From NCBI GenBank assembly GCA_947648495.1, contig CANSOA010000002.1, forward strand, positions 166,250-230,249: a stretch of 64,000 nt of DNA. Direction: 5' to 3'. The position numbers and the translations under genes are program-made. Below are positions 3,197 to 37,890 of the stretch, in pieces. Source of the stretch: an uncultured Clostridium sp. GTDB taxonomy: Bacteria; Bacillota; Clostridia; TANB77; CAG-508. Within the stretch, counting starts at the first letter, position 1; each line of letters opens with the position of its first letter. Below the pieces are notes generated by a model, which had not been told where the DNA came from, ran no database searches, and saw only the letters and a program-made list of their open reading frames with translations.

Positions 3197-3431
3197 TATA
3201 AAGTGTGTATAAAAAAATAGTACTATAAACGCCACGTCGATATTGTGGCAGTGAAAGTCAAAAGAAATAAGAATTTTTCTTATTTTTAAAATAACTTTGC
3301 TTATTTATATTTTACCATATTTTACATAAACTGTCAAGTGTTTTTAACTTTATATCGTTCCTCCCCACTTTACAAATCTGCATAACTTGTTATATAATAA
3401 ATTCAAATTGAAACGAAAGGATAATAACCAT

Positions 3432-4937
3432 ATGAAATTAAACAAACTTATCTCTTCTGTTGATGTAAAAAATATGATCGGTGATTTAGGTTTAGAGATT
3501 ACCAACATTCATTCCGACTCAAGAAAAATAAAAGAAGGAGGGCTTTTTGTTGCCATTAATGGATTTTCAAAAAATGGTGTTGAATTTATTCCTTCTGCCA
3601 TTGAAAACGGTGCAAAAGCAATCATTGTAGAGCCAGATGTGGACATCTACTCTCTTAATATTGGCTCAGAAATTCCTATTATTTCTGTTCAAAATACAAG
3701 AAAAGCTCTTGCACAAATTGCTTGTGAATTTTATGAACATCCCTCTAAAAAATTAAAACTAATTGGTGTAACTGGAACCAAAGGTAAAACAACGACTACT
3801 TTTATGATAAAATCCATATTAGAGACACATGGTTTTAAAGTAGGATTAATTGGAAGTATCGCTATCTATATAAACGGAGAAAAAATCGAAGATACGGACA
3901 GGACAACTCCTGAAAGTATTGAAATTCAAAAATTTTTAAGCCAAATGGTGGAACAAAAAACAGATGTCGCTATTGTTGAAGTTTCTTCTCAAGCTACCAA
4001 ACTTGACCGTGTAACTGGCTGTGACTTTGATATTGGGGTTTTTACAAATCTTAGCGAAGACCACATTAGCCCCAAAGAGCATCCTAATATGGAAGATTAT
4101 TTTAACTGCAAATTAGAACTTTTAAAAATGGCAAAATATGCTATTATCAATAACGATGATGAAAAACTTAGAACCATTCCAAATCTGTTGCCAAATAAGC
4201 CAATCAAAACCTTTAGCATTGATAATCTTTCGGATATTCAAGCAAATAGCAAGGATGTTGTTATCACCGATTCATATATTGATTTTACAATTGATTACAA
4301 TCATAAGAAAGAAAGAATTGAAGCCACAATTCCGGGAAAATTCAGTGTGTATAATAGCTTAGGAGCTATCGCAGTCGCTTCCTATTTTGACGTTCCAGCA
4401 GAAGAAATCCGCACAAGCTTAAAAGATTTACGTGTACTTGGTAGAAGTGAGCTTGTACCAAATAAATTAGGACTTTCCATTATGATTGATTATGCTCATA
4501 CTCCTTCTAGTTTGGAAAGCATTTTAACCGCTGTCAATTCGTACGCAAAAGGGCGTGTTATTTGTGCTTGGGGCGTTGGCGGTGATCGTGATAGTGCTAA
4601 AAGACCAATTATGGGTGAGATTTCTGGTCGTTTAGCTGATTTTACAGTTCTTATGTCCGATCAAGTTCGCACAGAAGCTCCTTTAAAGATATTAAAAGAA
4701 ATTGAAGTGGGCATTATACCAACTGGAAAACCGTATAAAATTATTGTTGATAGAACAGAAGGAATCCGTTATGCTATTTCAATTGCAAAACCTGATGATA
4801 TTATTGTTATTCCCGGTCTTGGACATGATTTATATTTGGAGAAAAATGGTGTGAAATATCCATATGATGAACGTAAAATAATTAGCAAGTTAATTGATGA
4901 AATGATTGAAAATGGAGAAAAACAATTGTTAAAGTAA
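3432..4937 (+). CDS. murE: UDP-N-acetylmuramoyl-L-alanyl-D-glutamate--2,6-diaminopimelate ligase (MurE)
   Basis: Mur ligase P-loop GVTGTKGKTTTT and full-length MurE-like domain order. Start at MKLNKLISS with an AAAGGA ribosome-binding site. Confidence 0.85.
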   Translation: MKLNKLISSVDVKNMIGDLGLEITNIHSDSRKIKEGGLFVAINGFSKNGVEFIPSAIENGAKAIIVEPDVDIYSLNIGSEIPIISVQNTRKALAQIACEFYEHPSKKLKLIGVTGTKGKTTTTFMIKSILETHGFKVGLIGSIAIYINGEKIEDTDRTTPESIEIQKFLSQMVEQKTDVAIVEVSSQATKLDRVTGCDFDIGVFTNLSEDHISPKEHPNMEDYFNCKLELLKMAKYAIINNDDEKLRTIPNLLPNKPIKTFSIDNLSDIQANSKDVVITDSYIDFTIDYNHKKERIEATIPGKFSVYNSLGAIAVASYFDVPAEEIRTSLKDLRVLGRSELVPNKLGLSIMIDYAHTPSSLESILTAVNSYAKGRVICAWGVGGDRDSAKRPIMGEISGRLADFTVLMSDQVRTEAPLKILKEIEVGIIPTGKPYKIIVDRTEGIRYAISIAKPDDIIVIPGLGHDLYLEKNGVKYPYDERKIISKLIDEMIENGEKQLLK

Positions 4938-21214: not shown

Positions 21215-22048
21215 TCATGAATTTTCTAATTCTTGTTTTTTCTCCAAAATCTTGCTCATATTTCGATAACGCCCTTCTCGCAATTCTTTTTCGTAGGCTT
21301 CTGGCTCAATATTTTTATCTAAATCTTCCAATTCTTTATCAATATCATATGGAACGCGTACAAACTCAAAACTAAAATCTGCTCCATACTCTTTTGCCCC
21401 ATATTCGCCTTCCAAAATTACATAATAACTCGCTGTTGTTTCTAAAACATTACTATCTTTTTCCTCATCTCTTACGACATTAAAACTATTGCCCACACTT
21501 CCAACATTAATCAAGGTTTTATTATACATTTTGTTCATAAATGGTGCGTGCAAATGTCCATAAATGACAATATCTGCCACTTTGTCTGACATGGTATTTT
21601 CACTTGGTTCAAACATTTGATATTTATTTTCATACGTATCTTCATTGATGATAACAGCTTCTTTTTTCTTTGGACTCGCATGAAACATTCGAATTAGACT
21701 TCCACTCATGTAAAACTCATACGAAAATGGCAAATCCAACAAATATTTTTTTGATTCTTCGGACAACAAGGAATTTAACCAATGCACTCTTTTGTGCATC
21801 AATTCAACTGGAATATTATGCTTGCTAACTTGATAAACCGATGGATCTGTGTCTACATCACAATTTCCTTGCACCACTACTTCACAGTTTTCCTTCACTA
21901 ATTTTACGCATTCTTCCGCATGACAACCTTTTTCCACGATGTCACCCAAACAAAATATTTTGTCAATACTTCGCTTTTGAATATCCTTTAAGGTTGTCTT
22001 TAAAGCCTCCAAATTTCCATGAATATCAGATATAACAGCTATTCTCAT
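21215..22048 (-). CDS. metallophosphoesterase (calcineurin-like)
   Basis: MRIAVISDIHGN...GDIVEKG...GHLH matches the metallophosphoesterase motifs. Confidence 0.7.
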   Translation of the reverse strand: MRIAVISDIHGNLEALKTTLKDIQKRSIDKIFCLGDIVEKGCHAEECVKLVKENCEVVVQGNCDVDTDPSVYQVSKHNIPVELMHKRVHWLNSLLSEESKKYLLDLPFSYEFYMSGSLIRMFHASPKKKEAVIINEDTYENKYQMFEPSENTMSDKVADIVIYGHLHAPFMNKMYNKTLINVGSVGNSFNVVRDEEKDSNVLETTASYYVILEGEYGAKEYGADFSFEFVRVPYDIDKELEDLDKNIEPEAYEKELREGRYRNMSKILEKKQELENS

Positions 22049-27019: not shown

Positions 27020-27421
27020 TTAAATTCTCTCTTTAAATTCTTTTTTTTGTTTTGGTGAAAGCCTTTTGTAATACCATAAAACTTTATCTACTTTTGACAT
27101 TTCAGGTACCAAAAGATGTGAAAGTAATAGACCTATTTCGACCCCATTACGTTTCAAAGAAGCGTTTTCTTTGAAAAATCTCTTTTTCATAATGAAAAAG
27201 ATTTCATTTTCTTGTACTAAGAGTTCTTCTGTTGCATCTTTCGATATTTCAAACTTCCTTGAAACATTGCTTATTATCCATCTAAAAAAAGCTTCAACAT
27301 GTTCCTCCGTACAATAATATTTTGGAATAAATTTTCCTACTACATCACCTGGCATTTCTCCGATTTCTTCCTTTGTTAAATGCCGCCATTCTAACTGCAA
27401 TAACTCCTTTACTTCCATCAT
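27020..27421 (-). CDS. hypothetical protein
   Basis: 133-aa ORF, no motif recognised. Confidence 0.3.
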   Translation of the reverse strand: MMEVKELLQLEWRHLTKEEIGEMPGDVVGKFIPKYYCTEEHVEAFFRWIISNVSRKFEISKDATEELLVQENEIFFIMKKRFFKENASLKRNGVEIGLLLSHLLVPEMSKVDKVLWYYKRLSPKQKKEFKERI

Positions 27422-27587
27422 ATCCTCCTTAATTATAAAGAATGCATAAAAACAAAAAAGTTTTGTAGTAATTTTATCATATAATTTTTTTTATTTCAAG
27501 AGTAATTTTTCATTTTAATAATTAAAATTATGTGTTAAACTATGGGGGAAATTTGAGAAAAAATAGGGGAAAAAATAGGGAAAAAAT

Positions 27588-27676
27588 GGGGACGGGGACA
27601 GTCTTGAAATCTTATTTTCTCGTTTTTTCTCATTTTTTCTTTATTTTTCTATCTAATTAAGATTGTCCCCGTCCCC
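27588..27676. repeat. 89-nt palindromic MITE-like element, copy 1 (GGGGACGGGGACA ... TGTCCCCGTCCCC)
   Basis: 13-bp GC-rich terminal inverted repeat enclosing a 63-nt loop of GAGAAAA-type octamers. Preceded by (A6)TAGGGG repeats. Confidence 0.8.
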
Positions 27677-27920
27677 ATTTCTCAATTTTTAAAAACAAAA
27701 ATAAAAACAAAAACAAAAATACCTCTTTAAAAAACTATTTCCTTTTACTCCATACTATCATTTCTTAAATAAAACCAACTTTAGTTTTCTTCTACTATCC
27801 TCTAGAAACTATTCTTTCAAATATTTATTTTTTTTATTTAAAAAATTTATTAAAAATAGATTAAATTGTATTTTTCAGTTTTTTTTTGGGGGGAGTTTTT
27901 AGGTCTTAGGGGGGTCTTAG

Positions 27921-28009
27921 GGGGACGGGGACACTCTTAATTAGATAGAAAAATAAAGAAAAAGTGAGAAAAAACGAGAAAATAAGATTTCAAGACTGTC
28001 CCCGTCCCC
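27921..28009. repeat. 89-nt palindromic MITE-like element, copy 2 (inverted relative to copy 1)
   Basis: Near-identical to the reverse complement of copy 1 (2-3 mismatches). Preceded by a G6/G5 tract cluster. Confidence 0.8.
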
Positions 28010-28108
28010 AACCCACCAAACCAACTTTTTATAACTTTTAGTCATTTAACTTATATCATTAACTTAATTTCAAAAAAATTCGCAAAATAAATTTTACAAA
28101 TAAATAAT

Positions 28109-28837
28109 CTAAAACAACTTCTCTAACTTATATTCCTTCTCCAATTTTTCATTCAAATAAATATTTGCAACAAGTTCCAATTCCTTCCTACATTTTTCCG
28201 ACAACTCAAACGAAAAAATTTTCTTTGCATCTGCAAGCATGATATATTTTATTGCAGTTTGTGTTGCCTCCGACACTTCAACTGCACCCGTATCTTGTTT
28301 TGCGCAAGCTTTGCATTTAAATCCATTATCCCTAAAACTAAAATGTGTCATATTTTCTTTCGTTTTACAAGAAACACATTCTCGTATATTCGGCAAAAAA
28401 CCAATAATTTTAAGAAGCCTTAACTTAAATACCGTCGTAATAAAATCCAAGTCTTTCTGTGTCTCGGAAATTGCATACAATGTATTTAAAAAAAGCTTCA
28501 ACGTATGATACGAATTTTGATTTTCTGTTGTCACATCATTCACAATTTTTGTGATATAAGTCGCATATGTAAGCTTATCCAAATCCGTTCGGATATTGTA
28601 AAACATCTCAATTGTCTCACATGAATTCATGGAATAATTTTCACCACTTTTAAACAACATATATTCTCCAAAACACAAAAATTGAGTGCCTGCAAGCAAG
28701 AGACTTTTCGGTCTTCTGGCTCCCCTTGCACTGCACCCAATTTTTCCTAAATTTGGCGTCAAAATCGTCAGCATTTTATCATAATCACCCATATTGTTTT
28801 CAATTAAAATTACTCCATTTATCTTAATTTGTTTCAT
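28109..28837 (-). CDS. recO: DNA repair protein RecO
   Basis: RecO N-terminal OB fold plus the C-terminal Cys4 zinc motif (CVSC...CKAC). AAGGGAAG ribosome-binding site. Confidence 0.8.
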   Translation of the reverse strand: MKQIKINGVILIENNMGDYDKMLTILTPNLGKIGCSARGARRPKSLLLAGTQFLCFGEYMLFKSGENYSMNSCETIEMFYNIRTDLDKLTYATYITKIVNDVTTENQNSYHTLKLFLNTLYAISETQKDLDFITTVFKLRLLKIIGFLPNIRECVSCKTKENMTHFSFRDNGFKCKACAKQDTGAVEVSEATQTAIKYIMLADAKKIFSFELSEKCRKELELVANIYLNEKLEKEYKLEKLF

Positions 28838-33387: not shown

Positions 33388-34563
33388 TCATTCTTTGGTT
33401 CCTATTTTCTCCTCGATTTCATACATTACTTTTACACTCACGCCTGTTTCATCTGTTACGGAAGCAACGTTTTGCTGAATTTCACTCGTATCTAAAATAC
33501 TTAATTCTTGGTTTAATTCTTCCTGTAACGCTTTTGTTAATTTCTCTTTTAGCTCTTCTTCCGTATAGGTTTTAAAGCTTTTGTTGGTCTCAAAATTCGT
33601 GATATTGACGATTTCTATTGGGATATAATAATTTGAAAATAGTTTTACTTTTTTATATGTTCTTATTGTATCACAATTTTGAAATTTTGGAACCCCTTTC
33701 TTGAAATTTATTTTAAAATTATGAAGATAAATTTCTACATTTTTTTCAACCTCGCCTGTTCGCTGGCTAATCTCTTGTATAAAAGCCTCTTTTCTTTCTT
33801 TTTCATGATGACTTACTACATAAATATCTGCATCACTATTAACAGGTCTAATTCCCGTATATTTTCCTTCCATAACGCCTTCTACTAAAATATCTCCGCA
33901 AGAAACAACGTCTCCAACATTGACACGGGCAGTTCCGTTTCTTACAACCATTTTAGAAATGGTTCCATTTTTATCTGCAACAATATTACACGGTGCATTT
34001 TCGTCAATAATTTCTGGCTCCTGAATAGCTTCGACAATTGTTACAATTACATTTGTGCCTTTCATGTCAATGCCAATCCAAGCTAAATCGTCTCGATTCA
34101 GACGTATTTCATTTTTAATTTCCTCTAAGTCAAGATTGACCTTTAGTTTTCCTTCTTTAATTCCATATTTAGCCAAATCAGATAAAATTTCCTCTCTCGA
34201 AATATTTTGCGCTCCAGATATTTCAATGTTCCAAATAAAACGTGTAATGACAAAAGAAAAAATTGCAATTACAAGAAGCGCAATTGCAAAAATTTTTCTT
34301 TTTTTATATTTTTTTATAACAAAAGGAAGTCCACTTTTTCCTTCCAAACTTACTCTACAAGATGTTCTTTTGGCAATATGACGAAGATTTTTGAAATCAC
34401 TTTTATTAATTTTCGCCTTTAAAATTGTTCCTTTTTCCATTTTGGAACTCCACAAAATAATATTTTCTGTTTTACAAATATTAATAAATCTTTCGATAAA
34501 AAAGCCTTCTACAACAATATCTACTGTGCCCAAAATATACCTATATAACCACTCAAAAATCAC
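33388..34563 (-). CDS. yqfD: stage IV sporulation protein YqfD
   Basis: N-terminal domain, central TM segment and a C-terminal domain typical of YqfD. Lies downstream of yqfC with a 4-nt overlap. Confidence 0.7.
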   Translation of the reverse strand: MIFEWLYRYILGTVDIVVEGFFIERFINICKTENIILWSSKMEKGTILKAKINKSDFKNLRHIAKRTSCRVSLEGKSGLPFVIKKYKKRKIFAIALLVIAIFSFVITRFIWNIEISGAQNISREEILSDLAKYGIKEGKLKVNLDLEEIKNEIRLNRDDLAWIGIDMKGTNVIVTIVEAIQEPEIIDENAPCNIVADKNGTISKMVVRNGTARVNVGDVVSCGDILVEGVMEGKYTGIRPVNSDADIYVVSHHEKERKEAFIQEISQRTGEVEKNVEIYLHNFKINFKKGVPKFQNCDTIRTYKKVKLFSNYYIPIEIVNITNFETNKSFKTYTEEELKEKLTKALQEELNQELSILDTSEIQQNVASVTDETGVSVKVMYEIEEKIGTKE

Positions 34564-34841
34564 GATGCATCTCCCCTTTTACTTTCAAAATCCAAATTTT
34601 CAATTTTACCGCTGACTAAAATATCATCTTCCGTCATTTGACTCAGCTTTAGATTAAATCCATTAATATTGATATTTCCAATATGGGTACTAATTCTCAC
34701 AAAAAAATCTTCGTATTCCAAGATTCCTTTAAAATTTTCAATTAAAACTTCGTCAAAACTCGTCACCGTTATTTTCGGAACTTTGCTGACAACTTCTCTT
34801 GGAATTTCTAATAGTTCATTAATTTTATTTAGTTTTCTCAT
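34560..34841 (-). CDS. yqfC: sporulation protein YqfC (YabP/YqfC family)
   Basis: 93-aa YabP-like beta-rich protein. Confidence 0.65.
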   Translation of the reverse strand: MRKLNKINELLEIPREVVSKVPKITVTSFDEVLIENFKGILEYEDFFVRISTHIGNININGFNLKLSQMTEDDILVSGKIENLDFESKRGDAS

Positions 34842-35066
34842 TAAAACACCTGCCTTGCTTAAATTTTTGCTTATTTATTTATATTCAAATACACAAGTTT
34901 TATTACAATTTTAAATATGACATTCAAATGTCATATTTAAAATTTAGGTTTTGTCAGATTTATTATTTTTATTTTTGAGCTTTTTGGGGGAGGATTTTTT
35001 GAGGGTTTTTGGGGGAGGATTTTTTTGAGTTTATTTTTGAGTTTTTTTGAGATTTTTGATTTTTTT

Positions 35067-35155
35067 GGGGACGGGGACACTCTTATGTTTATAGAAAAAT
35101 CGAGAAAAACTGAGCAAAAATGAGAAAATGAGATTTTAAGAGTGTCCCCGTCCCC
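35067..35155. repeat. 89-nt palindromic MITE-like element, copy 3 (perfect 19-bp stem GGGGACGGGGACACTCTTA)
   Basis: Same stem and GAGAAAA-type loop as copies 1 and 2. Preceded at 34981-35066 by a TTTTTGGGGGAGG/TTTTTGAG repeat array. Confidence 0.8.
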
Positions 35156-35298
35156 AAATTAATTACCAAATTAAATTACCCAATTACCCAAATTACAAAA
35201 TTACAAATTATCCCCAAATTATTTTTTAAAAAATATTTCCTAAAAAATTCTGAACAAAAAATAAAATATGACATTTTGATGTCATATTTTATTTTATC

Positions 35299-37890
35299 TT
35301 ACCTTATCTCCAATTTTTCTTCATCTCGATTCAAAACAATCTGCACAACCGAGCCATCTACAATTTTCTGTGCCACAATTGCCTTTGCAACCATAGTTTC
35401 AATCTCTGTTTGAATGGTTCTTTTTAGTGGTCTTGCTCCAAAATTAATATCATAGCCTTTTTCAATCAGAAAATCAATCGCTTCTTTTGAAATTTTAAGT
35501 TCGATTCCTTTTGTCAGTAACCTCTTTCTCAAATCACCAAGCAACAATTTTACAATGCCATACACTTCCGTTTTTGACAACGCATTAAAGTAAATTATTT
35601 CATCTAAACGGTTCAAAAATTCTGGTCTAAAATGATTTTTTAAAGCCAAATCTACCATCTTTTTTGCTTCCTCCGTTATGGTTTGATTATTTGAAATGCT
35701 ATCTAATATCGCTTGTGAACCTAAATTTGAAGTTAATATAATAATTGTATTTTTAAAATCTACTAATCTTCCTTGTGAATCAGTTACTCGACCATCGTCT
35801 AAAATTTGCAAGAAAATGTTGAATACATCAGGATGCGCTTTTTCAATTTCGTCAAATAATAATACAGAATAAGGCTTTCTTCTAACCGCTTCGGTAAGTT
35901 GTCCACCTTCGTCATAGCCAACATAGCCCGGAGGCGCACCAATTAGTCTCGTAACGCTGAATTTTTCCATGTATTCGGACATATCGAATCGTATCATATT
36001 TTTTTCGTCGTCAAATAATGTTCTGGCAAGAGTTTTTGCAAGTTCCGTTTTTCCAACACCTGTTGGCCCTAAAAATAAAAAGGAACCAATCGGACGATTT
36101 GGATTAGCAATTCCTGCACGAGAACGTACAATTGCATCACTTACCTTTTTGACAGCTTCTTCTTGTCCAATGACACTTTCATGCAAAATATGCTCCAAAT
36201 TCAAGATCTTTTCTCTTTCGCCTTCAACTAATTTTGTGACTGGAATGCCTGTCCATTTTGCTACAATTTTGGAAATTTCGTCTTCGGTTACTTTGTTTCT
36301 CACCAAAGTTGATTTGCCTTGTGATTTCTCAAATTCTCTTTCCTCTTGTTCTAAAACTTTTTGCAAATTTGGTAAAGTAGAATATTTCAATTCTGCGGCC
36401 TTGTTTAAATCATAAATACGTTCTGCCTGCTCAATTTGAGCATTTGTTTCATCGATTTTACTTTTTAATTTTGTAATTTTTTCGGCGCCTTTTTTCTCGG
36501 CATCCCATTTAGCTTTCATGTTTGTAAATTTTTCTCTTAGTTTGGTTAATCGATTTCGTACTTTTTCCAAATCTTCGCTGGATTCTTCGCTTTCCTCTCT
36601 TTGCAAAGCGGCCTCTTCAATTTCACTTTGCATGATTTTTCGCGATATCTCATCTAATTCTATTGGCATAGATTCCATTTCGGAACGAATCATGGCACAT
36701 GCTTCATCGACCAAATCGATTGCTTTATCTGGCAAAAATCGATCTGTTATATAGCGGTTTGATAACGTTACTGCAGCTATTAAGGCTTGGTCTTGAATTT
36801 TTACACCATGAAATATTTCAAATTTTTCTTGAATACCACGCAAAATTGTAATGGCATCTTCCACAGTTGGTTCGTCCACAATTACTGGTTGGAAACGTCT
36901 TGCAAGAGCTGCATCTTTTTCAATATATTCTCGATATTCGTCCAATGTTGTAGCTCCCATGCAATGCAATTCTCCACGTGCTAGCATTGGTTTTAATAAA
37001 TTACTGGCATCCATTGCGCCATCTGATGCGCCTGCACCAACAATATTATGAATTTCGTCAATAAACAAAATGATGTTTCCGTTGCTTTTGTCAACTTCGT
37101 TTAAGACGGCTTTTAAACGTTCTTCAAATTCGCCTCGATATTTGGCTCCAGCAATCAAAGTTCCTAAATCTAATGAAAAAATAGTTTTACTTTTTAAACT
37201 GGTTGGCACATCACCTCGAATAATTCTTTGGGCTAATCCTTCTACGATCGCGGTTTTTCCAACACCCGGTTCACCAATTAAAACTGGATTATTTTTGGTT
37301 TTACGTGTCAAAATACGAATTACATTTCGAATTTCGTCATCACGACCAATAACTGGTTCTAGTTTGTTTTGTCTGGCAAATGCAGTTAAATCTCGCCCAA
37401 ATTTGGATAAGGCATCATAGGTTTGTTCTGGTGTGTCTGATGTAACAGAAGTGTTGCCTCTGACATCTTTTAAGGCATTTAAAAATTTGGATTTGGTGAT
37501 GCCATATACTTTGAGTAATTGTTTGAAATCTTGACTTGTTTCTTCTATTAGTCCAAGCATTATATGTTCTACGGAAATAAATTCGTCTTTCATAGATTTT
37601 GCTTGTCTTTCAGCATTTTCTAGTGCTTTTTCTACATTTTCGGAAAATCGTAAGGCAACATTTCCTGTGATTTGTGGCAATTGGTCAATTTCTGTTTGAA
37701 CAGCGTTCTTAAAAGAATTCATGTCCACATCCATTTTTTTGAACAATAATGTGACTAATCCATCGTTTGCTGAAATTAGGCTTGATAACATATGATATTC
37801 TGTGATTTCAGCGTTTTTATTTCTAGCGGCAATATTGCTGGCAGTGGTTATGGCTTGTTTGGATTTTTCTGTAAAATTTGCAACATTCAT
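35299..37890 (-). CDS. clpB: ATP-dependent chaperone ClpB
   Basis: Two AAA+ modules ([15 protein letters not shown]; [15 protein letters not shown]) and a long middle coiled-coil; 863 aa. Confidence 0.9.

Follow-up and report, generated by a model that had tools for sequence, protein, structure and literature searches.

What is the palindromic element that recurs in the intergenic spacers of an uncultured Clostridium sp., and why is it bordered by tandem arrays rich in G-tracts? The question is raised by a 64,000-nucleotide (nt) stretch of contig CANSOA010000002.1 (hereafter the window), where one copy of the element, copy 3 (35067-35155), lies in the spacer between clpB (35299-37890, minus strand) and the gene of a YabP-family protein (34560-34841, minus strand), which is followed by yqfD; one homologue of the YabP-family protein carries the source name 'sporulation protein YqfC'. 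The element is very probably a non-coding repeat of the repetitive extragenic palindromic (REP)/REPIN kind, with ends that match the inverted repeats around a Y1/HUH transposase gene of the RAYT/TIRYT type in sister genomes. For the arrays, an origin by local duplication of the junction between flank and element end, together with slippage, has about an even chance of being correct.

A dispersed family of palindromic elements

A first-pass annotation of the window had described copy 3 as the third copy of a palindrome with a perfect 19-bp stem and a loop of GAGAAAA units, placed between clpB and yqfC, and this description holds. The stem arms GGGGACGGGGACACTCTTA (35067-35085) and TAAGAGTGTCCCCGTCCCC (35137-35155) are fully complementary, and the 51-nt loop (35086-35136) is built from ~10-nt (T/C)GAGAAAA-type units, for which Tandem Repeats Finder (TRF) reports a period of 10 at 35093-35133. 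Two inverted units and a spacer thus give a hairpin of the ~100-nt class. Folded as single-stranded DNA, 35060-35162 yields -25.9 kcal/mol, compared with -7.9 +/- 2.2 for shuffled sequences (z = -8.2). The window contains exactly six occurrences of the 13-mer GGGGACGGGGACA, which form three inverted pairs (27588/27676, 27921/28009 and 35067/35155), against a chance expectation of 0.10 matches with two mismatches allowed. Copy 1 (27588-27676) and copy 2 (27921-28009) lie between recO and a 133-amino-acid (aa) open reading frame (ORF), are separated by 244 nt and are 98% reverse-complementary; the interior of copy 1 is oriented opposite to those of copies 2 and 3. Copy 3 is retained in all six same-species contigs that span the clpB-yqfC spacer. 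The GC content of the window is 30.1%, not below 30% as had been stated of the genome.

A scan with GGGGACGGGGACANTCTT against one genome per species returned 75 loci, 33 of which fall in three low-GC metagenome-assembled genomes (MAGs) of Clostridia: CANEDP01 (~50 matches), CAOJUE01 (~21) and CAOJGX01 (5), ~76 matches in total. The other 42 loci are single matches, mostly in high-GC genomes, and by our estimate are about the number expected by chance. Where alignable, the window shares 77-83% nucleotide identity with the three MAGs, which we therefore regard as sister species. Further scans gave 66 single matches among metagenome contigs, of which no low-GC contig had any, together with a minimal hairpin of 40 nt (L127); among viral contigs there were four single matches.

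The unit that defines the family is an 18-nt end, GGGGACGGGGACA[C/G]TCTT, which is dispersed as inverted repeats, is invariant save for the one C/G position and extends over 18-20 nt. It is not self-complementary and lacks a terminal GTAG; CGTC is present inside GTCCCCGTCCCC, not as a terminal tag. GGGGACAC or GGGGACAG, the sequences that fit the GGGGWSAS consensus, is present in all 83 ends (S position: C 49, G 33, A 1), and T precedes the end at position -1 in 65 of 83 cases. While the ends stay constant, the interiors vary from 43 to 209 nt across several subfamilies: a 40-43-nt hairpin with a 7-nt loop is found beside 89-, ~103- and ~205-nt subfamilies, in tandem and nested arrangements as well. 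Members of the 89-nt subfamily, which includes the window copies, are 77-88% identical between genomes.

CANEDP01 and CAOJUE01 also have orthologous copies at matching positions, where one flank or both are 92-97% identical. In one such pair (L035, 7239-7440; L044, 7617-7752) the flanks are 73% and 93% identical and the ends are conserved, but the interiors are unrelated (166 versus 100 nt, 48% identity), which implies element replacement or turnover at a fixed site. Direct repeats of 2-8 nt at 32 elements were not above shuffled-partner controls, so there is no sign of target-site duplication, as expected for HUH enzymes and unlike miniature inverted-repeat transposable elements (MITEs) of the DDE type. 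One filled site could be compared with an empty one, L027 (888-1439) with window positions 21215-21223: between two genes that adjoin in the window, the sister MAG has an extra 136-aa ORF and a minimal hairpin copy of 40 nt, which coincides precisely with one border of the indel. Boundaries cannot be fixed from this pair because the whole 136-aa ORF differs too. The element is absent from the regions upstream of yqfC in six other species, although these regions are not syntenic.

The window also holds a putative decayed solo end, GGGGAAGGGAACA, at 60641-60653 on the minus strand, with two mismatches and adjoining G/C tracts. It stands directly after a stop codon and ahead of a terminator-like hairpin, AAAAACAGTTTTTTGAAACTGTTTTTTT (context 60634-60700), and is probably a decayed relic of the GGGGAC-end family.

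A transposase gene bracketed by the same ends

In CANEDP01, locus L042 carries a 170-aa ORF (2206-2718) between motif doublets at 1961/2057 on the plus strand and 2789/2885 on the minus strand. Its product matches the Pfam family Y1_Tnp (PF01797; E = 3e-7, 30.9 bits, cutoff 23) and has 442 homologues. The nearest of these (60-80% identity) are 167-200 aa long. Homologues that are ~50% identical are ~250 aa long, several are named 'REP element-mobilizing transposase RayT' by their source, and some have weak C-terminal helix-turn-helix (HTH) matches (HTH_24, Sigma70_r4, HTH_Crp_2). In an alignment of 20 homologues, the HxH and Y-x3-NP motifs (H60, H62, Y120, N124, P125) are invariant. A single-sequence PDB search with the transposase gave no match; a profile of the 20 homologues had as its sole PDB match 4ER8, the E. 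coli TnpA_REP (E = 2e-4), with the HUH and YI-x-NPVK segments aligned.

The linkage of gene and ends recurs in relatives of the L042 gene. A 64% identical homologue at L105 has the motif at ~1432 on the plus strand and at 2088-2106 on the minus strand, inverted around the gene, and a 52% identical homologue at L174 is flanked by a related inverted repeat, GGGGACGTTCCTTAAA, whose terminal inverted repeat (TIR) sequence GGGGACGT deviates from GGGGWSAS at one position. In the sister MAG CANEDP01 one transposase gene was seen, that at L042. An exact-protein look-up of the 133-aa ORF beside copies 1 and 2 and of protein P0124 gave no match.

One or two G4-G6 runs stand 25-60 nt upstream of the start codon in every RAYT/TIRYT gene inspected (L042, ~2160-2180; L104, ~1455-1465; L105, ~1510-1520; L174, 330-355), and at L174 they bracket a TATAAT-like box. 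These runs may be a promoter or autoregulatory feature.

Relation to known repeat systems

Several features recall the TIRYT genes ('TIRtrons'). These have been described as RAYT-like genes flanked by longer inverted repeats and not by GTAG REPs; many of their TIRs share the GGGGWSAS consensus, and some form moderately abundant repeat families, as dimers or clusters (Di Nocera et al. 2013, PMC3733652). Quentin et al. (2018, PMC6006769) equate TIRYT genes with their TnpA-Y1 subclass 2.1 and with the RAYT Group 1 defined by Bertels et al. (2017, PMC5581495), with Y-x3-NP given as the class-2 signature and GGGGWSAS again as a consensus (PMC6006769). Like TIRtrons, the present family combines a Y1 gene between non-GTAG inverted repeats, GGGGACAC/GGGGACAG sequences that fit GGGGWSAS exactly, moderately abundant dispersed repeats in the form of monomers, dimers and clusters, and HUH and Y-x3-NP motifs in the protein; the group has been reported in Clostridia. 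Unlike them, it has a GGGGAC unit that is doubled in the end, and its copies are mostly complete 43-209-nt hairpins with subfamily-specific interiors. Its nearest proteins (170-188 aa) also lack the HTH extension (DnaA_C/HTH_23/HTH_28-like) ascribed to subclass 2.1, and we therefore place the family within the RAYT/TIRYT repeat kind but not in a specific subclass. The hypervariable junction arrays and C-poor flank zone set out below are the only features that were not found described in the available parts of the TIRYT/RAYT literature.

The window copies resemble REPINs (Bertels & Rainey 2011, PMC3116915, PMC3337134) in that two inverted repeats and a spacer form a ~100-nt hairpin that is non-autonomous, intergenic, retained at orthologous sites and tied to a transposase gene with the same flanking repeats. 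REPIN units, however, are imperfect palindromes of 20-40 nt that are tagged with GTAG (or CGTC) and associated with RAYT groups 2 and 3 in Proteobacteria, whereas the window unit is not self-complementary, lacks GTAG and resides in a 30%-GC Clostridia host. The E. coli REP/BIME system with TnpA_REP shares the extragenic palindromes and provides the sole solved structure matched by the transposase profile (4ER8), but the sequence relation is very distant, and the REPs of E. coli are GC-rich hairpins of 35-40 nt that carry GTAG. Elements of the IS200/IS605 family (IS608, ISDra2) likewise use a Y1/HUH transposase and single-stranded hairpin signals and make no target-site duplication, and the conserved short sequence 5' of their left end is perhaps analogous to the T at -1 here; their ends, in contrast, are subterminal, non-identical hairpins and not TIRs, and their transposase is multi-copy and inside the element. 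The G-tract REPs of Charnavets et al. (2015, PMC4690160) have two adjacent 5' G3-4 tracts 1-2 nt apart, as in GGGGACGGGG, and a C-rich 3' half. Those G-tracts lie in the stem and tetraplexes were seen in vitro, whereas here the extra G-tracts lie outside the palindrome, within tandem arrays that vary.

Tandem arrays beside the elements

The repeat array reported upstream of copy 3, and the G-tract arrays reported before all three copies, are recovered by TRF. To the left of copy 3, a T/G array (34972-35066, plus strand) is C-free from 34981 to 35066 and consists of a 25-nt unit in 2.2 copies (34972-35025) followed by a 9-11-nt unit, TTTTTTTGAG, in 4.8 copies (35020-35067); it extends to the first G of the element. 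Copy 1 is preceded by an A/G array (27541-27587, plus strand) in which GAAAAAATAGGG is repeated 3.2 times (TRF 27557-27592) and runs into the end. Before copy 2 lies a T/G array (27879-27920, plus strand), in which T9G6 is followed by 2.1 copies of GGTCTTAGGGG (TRF 27902-27924), again into the end.

The right flank of copy 3 (35156-35251), which the first-pass annotation missed along with the transposase-repeat identity of the element, is an A/C-tract array that places T/G tracts on the minus strand. It is G-free over 96 nt; one of its periods is 8 and the other is 13 (CCAAATTAAATTA x2.6, which starts within the final CC of the end). This flank mirrors the left one, so that G-tracts lie 5' of the GGGGAC end on each strand. 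Copy 1 has a G-free right flank (27677-27783, minus strand) that includes (AAAAAC)x4.8 at 27691-27719, and copy 2 a short G-free A/C-tract flank (28010-28040, minus strand) that starts with AACCCACCAAACCAAC. In all, the window flanks are C-free or G-free over 47, 107, 86 and 96 nt.

The array sequence is different at each copy, even for the 98%-identical copies 1 and 2, and the arrays are therefore not carried with the element; the expectation that element and array would move as one unit is not upheld. Several TRF arrays reach into the end, to its first Gs or its last Cs, which indicates that the repeating unit comprises local flank and the start of the end. The same arrangement is seen at the distant L174 locus, where AACTTTGGGG occurs twice directly before that locus's own end.

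Strain comparison shows that the arrays are hypervariable. Across the clpB-yqfC spacer of the six same-species contigs, the sequence outside the array differs by only a few point substitutions; in the copy 3 array, a 35-nt block and the length of a G-run (G5 or G7) vary among strains. At the recO locus (three contigs), the largest differences are these: the copy 2 array differs by one 10-nt CCCCCTAAGA unit and by C6 versus C8/C9, the right flank of copy 1 by a 12-nt, two-unit (TTTTTG)x2 indel, and the left array of copy 1 by the lengths of a T-run and of a C3/C4 run. All same-species indels of at least 10 nt lie within arrays, as do most indels in both intergenic strain alignments, and the hairpins show point substitutions only. 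Tandem duplication and length variation between strains are concentrated where flank and end meet.

Composition of the flanks

Array-palindrome coupling, proposed from the three window copies, was assessed by counting ends with at least two G3+ runs within 60 nt, a state found in 1.9% of intergenic 60-nt windows. Coupling is evident in the window (three of six ends, p = 1e-4) but not significant in the sister MAGs (3/77, p = 0.18), and palindromes without arrays are found across the family, so that coupling is not a rule. Single G-runs are about twofold enriched in the MAGs (22/77 versus 14.9%, p = 0.0015), and C-runs are depleted beside ends (4/83, p = 0.004). Within the window, every intergenic cluster of at least three G-runs stands at one of the three elements, save that at the relic end 60641-60653; two further clusters are within coding sequence.

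Base composition reveals a broader pattern. C makes up 3.6% of the 10 nt outside the end and 6-8% out to 40 nt, and returns to ~15% past ~110 nt; T rises by an amount similar to the loss of C, and G and A stay near baseline. The excess of G over C averages +4.2 per 60-nt flank (55 ends positive, 18 negative; p = 3e-6), persists when only the MAGs are counted (p = 7e-5) and disappears in a control zone at -141 to -200. A C-poor, T-rich asymmetry with G exceeding C, ~40-70 nt wide outside each end, is thus a family-wide property, and the window arrays are an extreme form of it. The exchange of C for T would fit deamination of cytosines in single-stranded DNA, a preference for certain targets, or slippage of C-free seeds, and the data do not discriminate among them.

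Other features of the spacers

A-/T-tracts with a period of 9-12 nt, near the helical repeat, are present in the interiors of the three copies (27615-27640, 27957-27982 and 35093-35133) and in flanks (27557-27592 and 35020-35067). Phased tracts of this kind should produce intrinsic DNA curvature and are reminiscent of E. coli BIMEs with integration host factor sites.

A second, unrelated family of AT-rich palindromes, AAATATGACAT-N4-ATGTCATATTT, brackets the clpB-yqfC spacer with two copies (34913-34945 and 35257-35289; chance expectation 0.02). It has 18 copies in the ~322 kb formed by the window and sister-MAG loci (including L028, L041, L045, L064, L073 and L074), often 40-190 nt away from a GGGGAC element. 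The copy right after clpB, next to a T-run, may be the clpB terminator; an operator or a second repeat family are possible alternatives.

In most other contigs of the species, yqfD is called as two overlapping ORFs of 238 and 161 aa (3279-3995 and 3970-4455 in L076-L079, the second being cut in L079, with matching positions in L082-L085). The window yqfD (33388-34563) is an uninterrupted ORF of 391 aa; in L080, a contig with the same long array allele as the window, the yqfD call exceeds 238 aa. The split may reflect a strain-level frameshift in a sporulation gene, apparently tied to the array allele.

Short-read metagenome contigs of the species often break at or near the elements: L082-L085 begin 95 nt upstream of yqfC, and L099-L102 terminate inside or just past copy 2. 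Such breaks are to be expected of dispersed repeats, and these loci will be under-represented in MAGs.

Alternative explanations

The G-quadruplex potential that the first-pass annotation saw next to a stable hairpin leads to a different explanation, namely that the flank G-tracts and the two G4 tracts of the end (GGGGACGGGGAC) fold into an intramolecular quadruplex that competes with the hairpin or keeps the duplex open, and so serves the transposase, replication or transcription as a site of recognition or regulation. The idea has precedent, because circular dichroism data showed tetraplexes for some REPs that have a pair of adjoining G-tracts at the 5' side, and these were proposed as RAYT recognition elements (PMC4690160). 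The elements account for 11 of the 15 G4Hunter windows scoring at least 1.2 in the 64 kb, with peaks of 2.32 at copy 2 (27896-27944, the window maximum) and 1.6 at copy 1 (27571-27612), and at 27566-27597 two array tracts and the end's own GGGGACGGGG provide four G-tracts with loops of 8, 7 and 2 nt. Moreover, G-tracts always stand 5' of each end, and C-tracts almost never do. Set against the usual marks of a quadruplex, four G3+ tracts with short loops or a G4Hunter score of at least about 1.5, the potential is modest: the copy 3 array reaches only 1.36 and its nearest G-run is ~50 nt from the end, the window has no (G3+N1-7)x3 G3+ motif, and a single one, at 27566-27597, appears when loops of up to 12 nt are allowed. 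About 93% of family ends have no second flanking G-run, the enrichment in the sister MAGs is not significant, and the number of array units varies among strains, which speaks against a constrained structure. Arrays that are rare in the family and unstable in copy number argue against a required structure, and we consider this explanation unlikely.

The palindromes might instead be primarily host RNA or transcription elements, such as terminators, mRNA stabilizers or small RNAs, with a transposase link that is merely historical. All window copies are indeed intergenic and downstream of genes on the transcribed strand (from clpB to yqfC, and from recO to the next ORF), the spacer RNA folds well below shuffles (z = -7.1), several family copies have an A-run upstream and a T-run downstream like bidirectional terminators, orthologous copies persist in two MAGs, and RNA or transcription roles of REPs elsewhere in bacteria are reported in PMC3733652. 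However, an intrinsic terminator would call for a GC-rich stem, a 3-8-nt loop and a T-tail, whereas copy 3 has a 51-nt loop and no T-tail; no terminator-like site was predicted in 34700-35400 or 27350-28200, and the separate AT-rich palindrome and T-run right after clpB are the likelier terminator. Membership in a known RNA family was rejected, since Rfam returned no family at the gathering threshold for the whole window and only generic hairpin (microRNA-precursor) matches at permissive E-values for both loci; the interiors lack conservation within the family and offer no covariation. A primary role of this kind is quite improbable, and an RNA-level role compatible with the transposase-repeat reading through exaptation is possible. 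A classical MITE, derived by deletion from an insertion sequence of the DDE type and mobilized through its TIRs in a cut-and-paste manner, would share the 18-20-nt TIRs, the 43-209-nt size, the absence of coding capacity and the dispersed distribution. It is extremely unlikely here, given that target-site duplications do not exceed the shuffled control at the 32 elements and that the only gene bracketed by the ends encodes a Y1/HUH transposase and not a DDE enzyme.

Further candidates were tried and rejected. An older palindrome nested around the present one, as the source of the left G-tracts and right C-tracts, would make a left flank more complementary to its own right flank than to those of other elements; the mean scores were 18.2 for own and 20.1 for cross comparisons (one-sided Mann-Whitney test for own > cross, p = 0.96). 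Copies 1 and 2 do not appear to form an invertible switch: the 244-nt segment has the same orientation in three other strains, promoter-like matches do not exceed shuffle expectation, and no recombinase was noted among the nearby annotated genes. No tRNA or tmRNA genes were found.

Proposed mechanism and implications

A mechanism is proposed in which the two ends would pair as a long hairpin when the DNA is single-stranded, for example at a replication fork. A transposase acting in trans would recognize the hairpin, cleave at T|GGGG or right beside it, and rejoin the DNA without target-site duplication; this junction is probably the boundary of cleavage or of the target. Copies would spread in this way into intergenic spacers and be inherited vertically afterwards. 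The arrays would be local tandem duplications whose last unit is the junction of the flank with the first Gs of the end, and slippage would add and remove units. Replication forks that stall at the hairpin, or errors of cutting and rejoining, may promote this. Slippage of array units would make the arrays the most indel-variable parts of both spacers, as is observed.

Several points weigh against this proposal. The L042 protein does match NCBIfam NF047646 (REP_Tyr_transpos, 'REP-associated tyrosine transposase'; E = 5e-15), but its 55.7 bits are below the curated cutoff of 80, and the 170-188-aa proteins stop soon after the catalytic core, short of the C-terminal extension of subclass 2.1. The 80% identical homologue at L104 has the motif on its 3' side only, and tblastn finds no transposase gene within the window; a look-up of the protein cluster likewise gave no sample accession that ties a RAYT to the species. 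Present-day mobilization of copies in this organism is therefore no more than possible. No clean pair of filled and empty sites was found, which leaves the exact element boundary and cleavage site undefined. The flank skew could stem from target preference or strand-specific C-to-T mutation, and the case for junction duplication and slippage is drawn from the structure and polymorphism of the arrays.

A further idea, which we regard as doubtful, is that the ends give their flanks a local signature, mutational or structural, that is specific to the strand, or that flank G-tracts and the end's GGGGACGGGG form a hairpin/quadruplex switch. The signature may be the C-depleted, T-rich zone of ~40-70 nt with G exceeding C, grown into hypervariable G-tract arrays in this lineage, and it could arise if the flank is repeatedly single-stranded or is re-cut and re-joined by the HUH enzyme. 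The switch could act through a quadruplex that controls access of the transposase to the hairpin. If true, either would amount to a footprint or layer of control not described before in REP-type elements.

The assignment of the palindrome to a RAYT/TIRYT-tied repeat would explain the three window palindromes and the contig breaks by a single repeat family, which is of direct value for annotation. The literature searched holds only sparse mentions of REP-like systems in Clostridia, and the present family would extend such systems to an uncultured, 30%-GC, spore-forming lineage of this class. Variable arrays upstream of the yqfC/yqfD sporulation operon could serve as strain-typing markers. If the skew and the arrays reflect enzyme action or single-strand exposure, they would provide a sequence-only readout of the site and strand on which the transposase acts.

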